This document shows positions 28,810-29,830 of a DNA stretch of 64,000 nt, piece by piece. The stretch is from Escherichia phage MIZ6. Below the pieces are notes generated by a model. The model was given only the letters and a program-made list of their open reading frames with translations. It made no database searches and was not told the DNA's origin. Each line of letters opens with the position of its first letter. The first letter of the stretch is position 1. Both the position numbers and the translations under genes were made by a program. Location of the stretch: sequence record OR192075.1. One strand, 5' to 3'.

Positions 28810-29169
28810 TTAGTCACGGGAAGACAACCCAGCCATAAAACGGCTTAACAGTGTGTCGCGATAAGCAAAGCATAATTGCTTATCAGGAGCAGTATCACAC
28901 AAGTTGCGTTTTGTTTTAGCAAAGCTGGCAATACTCAGATCCCATGCTCGATTTTTTCGTTTTTCGTCTCGACCTTGTTTGTATGCTTCATCAAGTTCGA
29001 GCGCGATAAAATCACTACACATGTTATCATCATCACAGAAAGTTTTAATGATCTTTTTGTTGATCTCAAATCCTTTGTATTCAAACTTTGGATAAGGGCG
29101 CTCATTACTAGCAAGCGCACCAGCCGAGAACATCATAGCAATCATAGCAATTATTGTCAACTTTTTCAT
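28810..29169 (-). CDS. secreted/periplasmic Cys-containing protein
   Basis: 119 aa; N-terminal signal peptide MKKLTIIAMIAMMFSAGALA. Confidence 0.5.
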   Translation of the reverse strand: MKKLTIIAMIAMMFSAGALASNERPYPKFEYKGFEINKKIIKTFCDDDNMCSDFIALELDEAYKQGRDEKRKNRAWDLSIASFAKTKRNLCDTAPDKQLCFAYRDTLLSRFMAGLSSRD

Positions 29170-29176
29170 ATATTCC

Positions 29177-29767
29177 TCAATAGCGTTTAGTCTTAAGAAT
29201 GCCTTTACTCTTTAGATGGTTAGCCTTTTTTAGTACGTCATCAGCATAACCCAACCCGGCTTTATAGTTCCATCCAGCATTGTAAGAAGCTAGCGCGAGT
29301 CGGATATTACCGTTTCGAATATCCAGCCAGTATGCTAACTCATCCATCGCGTAGAATGCAGAAACCTCGCGATTCATGATAAAGTTGATAGTCTGGCGAT
29401 CACTCATTTTAACACCGCGCTTTGCATTTTTCGCTTTCACCGTTTTAAGGTAATTTTGAAATAATCCATAAGCATGATGATTTTTCTTTGGTGCTAAGTT
29501 TGCACCCGCGCTTGATTCTTGCCATGCGATACCCGCCAGGATGTGACCTAAACCCTTTCCGTTATAGCGAATATTCGGATGGTACTTTTTCAACTTACCA
29601 CTTTTCTCAAATTGCTCGCCGTATTGATAGGCGAAATGTAAATTATCTAGTTGGTGTGCTGTAAAGTTGTCTATCGGCGCTTTTTTGATCGGTGCGCTAG
29701 TCGATGCGTGTGTAGCACCAACGGCTAGTGACAGACTCAATACTATCGCTTTTAGAACTTTTAACAT
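29177..29767 (-). CDS. lytic transglycosylase (SLT domain) with signal peptide
   Basis: 196 aa; signal peptide; AGIAWQESS catalytic-Glu motif and ASYNAGW. Confidence 0.7.
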   Translation of the reverse strand: MLKVLKAIVLSLSLAVGATHASTSAPIKKAPIDNFTAHQLDNLHFAYQYGEQFEKSGKLKKYHPNIRYNGKGLGHILAGIAWQESSAGANLAPKKNHHAYGLFQNYLKTVKAKNAKRGVKMSDRQTINFIMNREVSAFYAMDELAYWLDIRNGNIRLALASYNAGWNYKAGLGYADDVLKKANHLKSKGILKTKRY

Positions 29768-29801
29768 TAATTTCTCCTGTTTGGCTTAACTTTCTGATTT
29801 C

Positions 29802-29830
29802 ATAATATAGCCCTATCACCAGAAAGTCAA
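29802..29830 (-). promoter_or_regulatory. sigma70-like promoter upstream of lytic transglycosylase gene
   Basis: -35 TTGACT 29825-29830, 17-bp spacer, -10 TATTAT 29802-29807; leader with AGGAGA. Confidence 0.45.

Follow-up and report, generated by a model that had tools for sequence, protein, structure and literature searches.

We identify two adjacent genes of Escherichia phage MIZ6 as the orthologues of vs.1 and vs of phage T4, and the first of them very probably encodes an exported lytic transglycosylase. The genes lie in a stretch of 64,000 nucleotides (sequence record OR192075.1; hereafter the window), which is Krischvirus DNA, that is, from an RB49-like T4-type coliphage. The best explanation of the locus as a whole, in which we place about even confidence, is that an auxiliary transglycosylase, Vs.1, is made early and exported, accompanied by a second exported protein, Vs. 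The most interesting point left over is a conflict between the sequence of Vs and its classical annotation as a modifier of valyl-tRNA synthetase (ValRS).

The locus carries vs.1 and vs in a conserved gene order

Two open reading frames are present on the minus strand, as the original prediction had placed them. vs.1 (29177..29767; 196 amino acids; Pfam SLT, PHROG 600) encodes a predicted exported family-1 lytic transglycosylase of the SLT/GH23 type. vs (28810..29169; 119 amino acids; PHROG 1256), annotated as a "valyl-tRNA synthetase modifier," is predicted to encode an exported protein of four helices in which four cysteines are invariant, and it starts 7 nt past the vs.1 stop codon. The upstream neighbor is regB (29854..30276, minus strand), an endoribonuclease gene whose product matches Pfam REGB_T4 (E 2e-48) and which is annotated in GEC-3S and Phi1. 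Downstream, in the same transcription unit, lies tk.4 (28339..28794, minus strand), encoding a macro-domain protein (Pfam Macro; PHROG 335).

The order regB-vs.1-vs-tk.4 is conserved and is the same as in T4, and the position of vs.1 between regB and vs was found in T4, Phi1, and GEC-3S. DNA identity is 98.8–100% among the listed Krischvirus genomes and at least 95% across all 58 matching records; the genes vs, vs.1, regB, and tk.4 are annotated there. T4 Vs.1 (ORF 61.4) and Vs (ORF 60.9) share with the proteins described here their gene order, the type of N terminus, the SLT motifs, and the four-Cys pattern. Identity to the T4 proteins is about 50% for Vs.1 and about 30% for Vs, and Vs and T4 Vs are reciprocal phmmer matches at about 1e-5. 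The identity of both genes as orthologues can be read directly from these comparisons. The loci differ in spacing: in T4, vs.1 follows regB by 7 nt, whereas here the two are separated by 86 nt, and this spacer contains a promoter for vs.1. The original prediction of an exported SLT enzyme next to an exported four-Cys protein is thus supported at the sequence level, but it had missed that these are the known T4 genes vs.1 and vs.

Vs.1 is predicted to be an exported family-1 lytic transglycosylase

Vs.1 matches Pfam SLT (PF01464) over residues 76–167 with 25.6 bits, above the cut-off of 21.3 bits, and PHROG 600 with an E value of 1.3e-59. The AWQESS and YNAGW motifs from which an SLT domain had been proposed map to residues 81–86 and 162–166, respectively, and all three motifs of family-1 lytic transglycosylases are present, namely the E-S motif with the catalytic glutamate, G-L-(M/F)-Q, and A/S-Y-N-A-G. 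In an alignment of 22 homologues, Glu-84, Gly-101, Ser-161, Tyr-162, Ala-164, and Gly-165 are invariant, and Phe-103, Gln-104, and Asn-163 are at least 90% conserved. The predicted catalytic residue is Glu-84 of the W-Q-E-S motif (codon at 29516..29518, minus strand); EtgA has its E-S motif at the aligned position.

EtgA, a transglycosylase of a type III secretion system (T3SS), is the best solved sequence relative of Vs.1, at a marginal E value of 0.064. Like Vs.1, it is an enzyme of about 150–200 residues with a Sec signal peptide and a single family-1 transglycosylase domain, and the two proteins align over motifs I and III. Unlike Vs.1, EtgA serves a secretion system, an apparatus that the phage lacks. 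IagB, IpgF, and VirB1 are further specialized small lytic transglycosylases of secretion systems. The closest cellular relatives of Vs.1 that we found are represented by a Helicobacter chromosomal gene beside glyS.

The AF2 model of Vs.1 has a pLDDT of 85.6, and its best Foldseek matches are goose-type lysozyme, MltD, Slt, and Slt70, with a probability of about 1 but E values of only 8e-3 to 0.2. The model is consistent with a goose-lysozyme-like all-alpha fold, within the limits of these weak E values. Such values, together with the modest Pfam score, would also suit a relic that is catalytically dead or merely binds peptidoglycan. We regard this reading as very improbable, as the catalytic glutamate and the other two motifs are invariant or nearly so in 22 diverse homologues and more than 2000 phage genomes retain the gene.

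The N terminus of Vs.1, MLKVLKAIVLSLSLAVGATHA followed by STS, contains two lysines (Lys-3 and Lys-6) and a hydrophobic core of 12 residues, with T-H-A as the cleavage motif. Residues 1–21 (29705..29767, minus strand) are predicted to form a Sec signal peptide cleaved after T-H-A. For both Vs.1 and Vs, signal peptides were assigned by a rule-based scan combined with conservation across homologues. Across 79 related loci, nearly every Vs.1 homologue has an equivalent N terminus, the exceptions being a few short or over-extended starts. The segment is kept in kind but not in sequence, and in the AF2 model it is detached and has low pLDDT. This n-h-c pattern and its retention bear out the signal peptide first proposed for the SLT protein, and the mature enzyme would be small and basic (pI ~9.5). 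By the same rules, a cleavable n-h-c signal peptide precedes the muralytic domain, as in signal-peptide (SP) endolysins. We also considered a SAR endolysin. In this type, about 18–20 N-terminal residues form a transmembrane domain that is weakly hydrophobic, rich in Gly, Ala, and Ser, and left uncleaved (PMC7692668). This reading was rejected, as Vs.1 has a short (~12 residues), strongly hydrophobic segment with an AXA-type site after it.

The enzyme as such is not new, because the resemblance of vs.1 to SLT first appeared in print in 2003–2006. Full-text literature searches found no functional study of Vs.1, and NCBIfam contains no family for either Vs.1 or Vs.

vs.1 and vs lie downstream of an early promoter

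A strong sigma70-type early promoter, TTGACT-17-TATTAT (29802..29830, minus strand), matches the consensus at 10 of 12 positions, and the GEC-3S record annotates the same site. The vs.1 start codon lies 35 nt downstream, and an A/T-rich tract lies upstream. The class TTGACW-N16-18-TATWMT, to which this promoter belongs, is represented by 13 sites in the window compared with 0.31 expected. Twelve of them are on the minus (coding) strand, where the class is enriched about 40-fold, and the sites have A-rich upstream sequence in common. The separate sigma70-like promoter that had been proposed for the SLT gene is one member of an enriched class. The Shine-Dalgarno sequence of vs.1 (caGGAGaaattaATG), read from the sequence, includes GGAG at 29774..29777 (minus strand), a possible RegB cleavage site like those of other early genes of the window; the specificity of RegB for GGAG is given in the notes of the phage records themselves.

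We found no late-promoter motif (TATAAATA) near vs.1 or vs and no convincing terminator between vs and tk.4. In T4 transcript data, vs.1 and vs are both classed as early RNA, with protein detected. The absence of the late motif nearby and the early class of the T4 orthologue speak against late expression of the SLT gene.

Homologues of Vs.1 are widespread and in some lineages adjoin lysis genes

The separate M15 endolysin of the original prediction is present at 33017-33406 (Peptidase_M15_4, E 4e-12), and Vs.1 is therefore not the sole endolysin. Lysis fails in T4 e (lysozyme) mutants; Vs.1 would therefore be insufficient on its own and would have to be either held in check or weakly active.

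Homologues of Vs.1 occur in more than 2000 genomes, from Straboviridae, Ackermannviridae, Felixounavirus, and Vibrio phages. In Cronobacter phage S13, the homologue overlaps the start of the i-spanin gene between alc and pseT, a neighborhood that is pre-replicative in T4. At another locus (L064), it precedes genes for a transmembrane coiled-coil protein and a lipoprotein, and a distance of 1.2 kb separates it from the spanins in Felixounavirus. Spanin adjacency is a feature of these other lineages, not of this window nor of T4. The spanin-adjacent homologues point tentatively, and with a little less than even confidence, to an auxiliary role of Vs.1 in lysis or in the envelope.

The early promoter and early RNA class could instead indicate that Vs.1, with or without Vs, acts early in infection. 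It might do so by remodeling the wall, excluding a superinfecting phage, or taking part in lysis-inhibition signaling, all suggested in the original prediction; it might also make the cell resistant to lysis from without, repair the entry hole, or counter a host envelope defense. However, a late function is compatible with early transcription, and the S13 homologue overlaps the spanins within a pre-replicative neighborhood. Homologues in other lineages also adjoin lysis genes, and the cutting of glycan strands offers no obvious way to exclude a superinfecting phage. We consider early action unlikely, even though vs.1 and vs sit about 2 kb from rI and T4 Spackle and RI are early periplasmic proteins with such roles (PMC7677548 and PMC8385771). 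It is also favored by the suggestion of the CRISPRi-ART authors that Semi-fit genes of unknown function may relate to host defense (PMC11879866).

In that genome-wide CRISPRi-ART knockdown screen, T4 vs.1 was scored "Semi-fit" (0.81 against a threshold of 0.7; p ~0.10, sub-significant; PMC11879866 supplement), as one of only five genes of unknown function in this category (PMC11879866). Knockdown of T4 vs was "Not fit," with no fitness effect (PMC11879866). The Felixounavirus homologue, SUSP1 gp083, was likewise "Not fit" (1.02 versus a threshold of 1.2).

A proposed role of Vs.1 as a pre-positioned auxiliary muralytic enzyme

Secreted early second muralytic enzymes are already known, namely Tgl of Kayvirus and the SP endolysin of Fletchervirus. 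Tgl of Kayvirus (Staphylococcus phage K-like) has been proposed as an additional endolysin (PMC7150955). It resembles Vs.1 in its lytic-transglycosylase motif, Sec signal peptide, and early promoter for host RNA polymerase, and in being distinct from the main, late endolysin (PMC7150955). It differs in its Gram-positive host, in having no demonstrated sequence relationship with Vs.1, and in that no Vs-like neighbor is reported. Fletchervirus has a Sec-dependent, holin-activated SLT endolysin (PMC7692668). SP endolysins such as Campylobacter Fletchervirus Lys and Lys44 of Oenococcus phage fOg44 are exported by Sec before lysis and are harmless until the holin depolarizes the membrane (PMC7692668). 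These enzymes are the main endolysins of their phages, whereas here an M15_4 endolysin is present besides Vs.1. The Fletchervirus SP endolysin NCTC12673 gp011 was rejected as a relative of Vs.1, as hhalign aligned only the signal peptides (probability 1%), and we regard it as an analogue.

From the motifs, N termini, and promoter described above, we infer the following role. Early in infection, host RNA polymerase would use the promoter at 29830-29802 to transcribe the vs.1-vs-tk.4 operon. Vs.1 would be released into the periplasm by cleavage of its Sec signal peptide, as a soluble family-1 lytic transglycosylase whose Glu-84 cuts the glycan strands of peptidoglycan. In the manner of Kayvirus Tgl and the SP endolysins, it would be a second, pre-positioned muralytic enzyme that builds up in the periplasm early without causing lysis alone. 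It would then aid breakdown of the wall and envelope, or local remodeling, once the holin/endolysin/spanin system fires. Vs would also be exported, as a four-helix domain stapled by two disulfides that is periplasmic or, in CC31-like phages, lipid-anchored. It might conceivably modulate Vs.1 or another muralytic activity.

Vs is a doubtful dedicated partner of Vs.1

In the original prediction, the downstream protein was a possible inhibitor or cofactor of the enzyme. Vs would then be a dedicated periplasmic inhibitor of Vs.1, similar to an immunity protein, or its activator or localizer. Translational coupling would hold the two in fixed proportion, and Vs.1 would be silenced until lysis or directed to its site. 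Of 49 distinct pairs of the two genes, 43 show an abutting or overlapping junction (−8 to +7 nt), and the periplasm is the predicted location of both products. The mature proteins have complementary charges (pI ~9.5 for Vs.1 and ~6.1 for Vs), and Vs evolves fastest of the four neighboring genes. There are also precedents: EtgA is activated by its partner EscI. In Firehammervirus, a gene overlapping that of the SLT endolysin delays lysis (PMC7692668), and T4 Spackle, an early periplasmic protein, inhibits a muralytic enzyme, the gp5 tail lysozyme (PMC7677548).

The distribution of the genes argues against such a pair. Ackermannviridae, Felixounavirus, Aeromonas T4-like phages, and phage S13 encode Vs.1 but not Vs. 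Homologues of Vs.1 are present in 2085 phage records and Vs is detectable in about 1150, such that roughly a thousand phage genomes have Vs.1 without Vs. In the Aeromonas phages, Vs is replaced by a 146-residue lipoprotein, which we rejected as a divergent Vs (hhalign probability 5%). A mirror-tree analysis of 30 loci, in which RegB and Tk.4 served as controls, revealed no specific co-evolution of Vs.1 and Vs: their partial correlation given RegB and Tk.4 was 0.125, compared with 0.61 for Vs.1 and RegB. Overlapping or abutting junctions are generic throughout this early gene cluster. Vs resembles Spackle (gp61.3), Ivy, MliC/PliC, and LprI in being small and exported to the periplasm, but searches for sequence or fold similarity to these proteins detected none. 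Finally, the "Not fit" score of T4 vs beside the "Semi-fit" score of vs.1 is unlike that of an essential antidote. Together, these data do not uphold an obligate pair, and we think it rather improbable that Vs modulates Vs.1.

The features of Vs conflict with its ValRS annotation

Both features first noted for the 119-residue protein, a signal peptide and four cysteines, were found. Vs matches PHROG 1256 (E 1.8e-33), and its family, PF26829, is a precomputed assignment on close homologues. The only Vs match that was not phage-like (P0043) was discarded as a repetitive spurious open reading frame. The N terminus, MKKLTIIAMIAMMFSAGALA followed by SNE, contains a predicted Sec signal peptide (residues 1–20; 29110..29169, minus strand) with cleavage after A-L-A. 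Among homologues, the signal peptide is conserved in kind, not in sequence, and an n-h-c signal peptide is present in every full-length Vs homologue (79 loci). CC31-like Vs proteins carry a lipobox, LSGC, which would make sense only for an exported protein. Vs has exactly four cysteines (Cys-45, Cys-51, Cys-91, and Cys-100), all within the mature part, and these are invariant together with Gly-66 and Gly-114. The AF2 model shows four helices with a pLDDT of about 90 for the mature part, which has a pI of ~6.1 and a mass of about 10.5–11 kDa. We conclude that Vs is very probably exported.

The label "valyl-tRNA synthetase modifier" is universal for Vs in phage records, UniProt-derived text, and PHROG 1256. 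In its classical sense of a protein that binds host ValRS, it requires a cytoplasmic location. If the label is right, Vs is a cytoplasmic 10-kDa ValRS binder and its adjacency to vs.1 is ordinary synteny. Its hydrophobic N terminus would then not function in export, or export would be partial. The reported size of the ValRS factor is 10 kDa, and the calculated mass of mature Vs comes near it. The lack of co-evolution between Vs and Vs.1 would also agree with the label, as would the universal annotation and the classical vs genetics and biochemistry (Muller and Marchin, 1975 and 1977), as cited in PMC8076793.

The sequence features of the family would fit a periplasmic protein and do not appear to fit a cytoplasmic ValRS modifier. 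Besides the signal peptide in every full-length homologue, the invariant CX5C...CX8-10C pairs are typical of periplasmic disulfides. T4 and RB49-type Vs are only about 30% identical, although both phages infect E. coli with the same ValRS, and nothing is invariant beyond the four cysteines and two glycines. In the original T4 record of 1986, the open reading frame appears as "ORF 60.9" with no gene name, and it therefore received the vs label at a later date. Full-length T4 Vs with an N-terminal His tag was insoluble in the cytoplasm (PMC8076793), which we count against a cytoplasmic location. In our view, it is unlikely that the label is right.

Considered jointly, these points could mean that the product of the "vs" open reading frame of all T4-like phages is no ValRS modifier but a four-helix protein of the periplasm, held together by disulfides and, in some phages, anchored by a lipid. 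The gene of the ValRS factor would then have been misassigned, or contact with ValRS would occur outside the normal compartment, and Vs would form with Vs.1 a hitherto unrecognized early periplasmic module with a measurable contribution to T4 fitness. We advance this joint reading tentatively, with distinctly less than even confidence.

Significance

The label with which the sequence of Vs is at odds is 50 years old, and hundreds of genome annotations have taken it over. Should it be wrong, the ValRS-modifying factor would again lack an assigned gene. Among genes to which no role has been assigned, Vs.1, in turn, is one of those most widely retained by large virulent phages of Gram-negative bacteria. 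If it is indeed an early exported transglycosylase acting beside the holin-endolysin-spanin system, it would be a new component of the textbook T4 lysis and envelope program.

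Gene order at the vs.1-vs locus

The window belongs to a Krischvirus, an RB49-like T4-type coliphage. Its 1.25-kb vs.1/vs stretch shares 100% DNA identity with Escherichia phages MIZ2 and MIZ3, 98.8–99.5% with other listed relatives (e.g. ECD7, GEC-3S, Phi1, and RB49), and at least 95% with 58 of 58 matching records. A minus-strand run opens with regB (29854–30276) and continues through vs.1 (29177–29767, 196 aa) and vs (28810–29169, 119 aa), with the macro-domain gene tk.4 (28339–28794) last, an order common to the window and T4. The two middle ORFs are so named in phage records, and profile searches assigned them to PHROG 600 (E 1e-59) and PHROG 1256 ("valyl tRNA synthetase modifier," E 2e-33), respectively.

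Between tk and tk.4 (27654–28385, minus strand) lie three small ORFs, all annotated as hypothetical in relatives. The product of the first (27654–27947) is 97 aa long and has hydrophobic stretches resembling transmembrane segments; those of the other two (27940–28182 and 28155–28385) are Cys-rich, with paired CxxC-like motifs resembling zinc ribbons. Several deposited genomes (MN850615 (kvi), KM209320, MK972699, MK962750, and others) mislabel Vs.1 homologues as "RegB endoribonuclease" or "site-specific RNA endonuclease," probably through annotation slippage from the adjoining regB gene.

Vs.1 is a predicted exported lytic transglycosylase

Vs.1 matches Pfam SLT above the curated cut-off and carries the AWQESS and YNAGW motifs on which the original prediction was built. 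Across 22 homologues, with identity down to 30%, Glu-84 (W-Q-E-S), Gly-101 (G-L-F-Q), Ser-161, Tyr-162, Ala-164, and Gly-165 are conserved, and Asn-163 of the S-Y-N-A-G motif is at least 90% conserved. The AlphaFold2 model was confident (pLDDT 85.6), and its closest structural matches, at modest E-values, were goose-type lysozyme, MltD, Slt, and Slt70. Among solved structures, the closest by sequence was the T3SS transglycosylase EtgA, a marginal match (E 0.064) whose alignment spans motifs I and III. The SLT similarity is not new: it was published in 2003 and 2006 for T4 and five relatives and interpreted as "some role in cell lysis" (PMC1524935).

The N terminus shows a positively charged n-region and a hydrophobic core of 12 residues, followed by T-H-A|S. 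Across 79 related viral loci, nearly every Vs.1 homologue has a signal-peptide-like N terminus, and those that do not are ORFs with a truncated or over-extended start; the sequence of the segment itself is not conserved. Mature Vs.1 is basic (median pI 9.5). A signal-anchor-release domain was rejected: it would need a longer hydrophobic core, and the cleavage site is too distinct. The separate endolysin gene (33017–33406) was confirmed as Peptidase_M15_4. These features, with the promoter described below, support the prediction that Vs.1 is an exported, early-made lytic transglycosylase distinct from the main endolysin.

The nearest cellular relatives (L088–L167), 24–31% identical over most of their length, are almost all from Helicobacter and other Campylobacterales (e.g. 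L156 3947–5014 and L088 3992–4663). In two cellular loci examined, the gene adjoins chromosomal glyS and not a prophage or secretion-system locus.

vs.1 and vs are probably expressed early

The proposed σ70-like promoter was recovered ahead of vs.1 by consensus scan (TTGACT-17-TATTAT, 29830–29802, minus strand). Loose consensus sites were barely enriched in the vs.1/vs region (27 versus 18.3 ± 4.6 expected), whereas the strict class TTGACW-N16–18-TATWMT was strongly enriched, with 13 copies across the window where 0.31 would be expected. Twelve are on the minus strand, which bears the early genes; apart from the vs.1 site, these are at 372–401, 3289–3317, 12960–12987, 15464–15491, 17732–17760, 20834–20862, 21509–21537, 22787–22815, 23586–23613, 33821–33849, and 62057–62086; the plus-strand site is at 52845–52872. 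The vs.1 promoter shares an A-rich upstream tract and a 30–40-nt leader with other strict-class sites, several of which have such tracts and sit just past terminator-like T-runs. GGAG, the RegB target, falls within the Shine-Dalgarno sequence of vs.1, as in several other early genes of the window. No late-promoter motif (TATAAATA) was found near vs.1/vs, and in T4 both genes give early RNA and both proteins were detected (PMC9697503 supplement). Early expression is thus well supported by promoter class, the lack of a nearby late motif, and T4 RNA class.

A near-perfect σ70-like site (TTGACA-17-TATGAT, upstream TG, 11/12) sits at 29132–29160 (minus strand), within the first, signal-peptide-coding codons of vs; the match may have arisen by chance from the coding sequence, or it may act as an internal promoter serving tk.4 and genes beyond. 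The 1986 T4 record (L087, X04567.1) marks a potential −35/−10 pair for ORF 61.4 inside the regB end.

Vs.1 may assist envelope breakdown

T4 e mutants do not lyse, and therefore Vs.1 cannot be sufficient for lysis. Gene neighbourhoods outside this clade are telling. In Cronobacter phage S13 (Straboviridae; NC_028773, locus L084 4602–5784), the homologue lies between alc and pseT, is followed by two spanin genes, and overlaps the i-spanin start, looking like part of a lysis cassette. In an uncultured 166-kb phage (L064, 3929–5227), it directly precedes and overlaps genes for a coiled-coil transmembrane protein and one with a lipobox, a predicted i-spanin/o-spanin pair. The Felixounavirus homologue is flanked by rIIB and pnk and has the spanins 1.2 kb downstream.

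Secreted accessory muralytic enzymes have phage precedents, and vs.1 and vs are known T4 genes. Kayvirus Tgl is a Sec-secreted extra endolysin with an early promoter beside the late LysK (PMC7150955), and the SLT endolysin of Fletchervirus depends on Sec for export and on the holin for activation (PMC7692668); an exported muralytic enzyme can therefore be produced early yet function at lysis. Profile comparison rejected the Fletchervirus enzyme as a family member, leaving it an analogue. Our best reading, a tentative one, is that Vs.1 may be an auxiliary, pre-positioned periplasmic transglycosylase that helps envelope breakdown or local wall remodelling. The early-acting roles originally proposed, such as superinfection exclusion, appear unlikely.

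Vs looks exported, and its pairing with Vs.1 is doubtful

Signal-peptide-like N termini are present, as proposed, in both the 196-aa and the 119-aa protein, and the latter has the four cysteines claimed. Every full-length Vs homologue, T4 Vs included, starts with a predicted n-h-c signal peptide, and only Cys-45, Cys-51, Cys-91, Cys-100, Gly-66, and Gly-114 are invariant. Mature Vs was predicted as four helices (pLDDT around 90), with one Cys pair at the helix1-helix2 turn and the other in the helix3-helix4 loop. Judged by sequence, these are hallmarks of a periplasmic disulfide-bonded protein. CC31-like Vs proteins have a lipobox (L-S-G-C) in place of the signal-peptidase-I site and are predicted lipoproteins; they (L023, L032, L033, and L052, about 4498–4863; protein P0036) carry Lys at +2 and five Cys in all.

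A dedicated enzyme-partner relationship between Vs.1 and Vs is possible but unproven, and we consider it rather doubtful. Both are predicted to be periplasmic, their charges are complementary, and their genes overlap or abut in 43 of 49 distinct pairs, all of which favours a pair. However, overlapping junctions are the norm throughout this T4 early cluster, and Vs.1 often occurs without Vs: its homologues are in 2085 phage records (Straboviridae, Ackermannviridae, Felixounavirus, and Vibrio and Aeromonas phages), Vs being detectable in about 354 + 796. In Aeromonas T4-likes, an unrelated lipoprotein occupies the Vs position. The mirror-tree partial correlation was only 0.125 for Vs.1-Vs versus 0.61 for Vs.1-RegB, and T4 CRISPRi-ART scored vs.1 as "Semi-fit" (0.81, threshold 0.7, p about 0.10) but vs (0.35), like regB (0.14), as "Not fit" (PMC11879866 supplement). 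The SUSP1 homologue of Vs.1 fell slightly under the fitness threshold.

The Aeromonas phages lacking Vs encode a 140–146-aa exported protein or lipoprotein directly upstream of tk.4 (L039 4871–5311, L041 5118–5558, L042 5384–5806, and L063 5088–5528), rejected as a divergent Vs (hhalign probability 5%). One group of T4-like phages of roughly 140–180 kb (L053–L059 and L065) has a longer Vs.1, with a mature part of about 200 aa; intervening genes there separate it from Vs (about 4838–6077), which lies 0.5–1.2 kb downstream.

The Vs annotation conflicts with its sequence because a protein that binds host valyl-tRNA synthetase would have to be cytoplasmic. The 1986 T4 record (1463–2348) lists vs.1 as unnamed ORF 61.4 and vs as unnamed ORF 60.9; the vs label was therefore attached later. 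T4 and RB49-type Vs are only about 30% identical, though both phages face the same E. coli ValRS. Vs matched no known fold or family, and its small family is phage-restricted (16 representatives in 1.84 billion proteins searched). Full-length His-tagged T4 Vs was insoluble in the cytoplasm (PMC8076793), weak but consistent evidence against the annotation. The interest for follow-up lies in this clash between the sequence of Vs and the function classically assigned to it, and in the unexplained fitness signal of vs.1.
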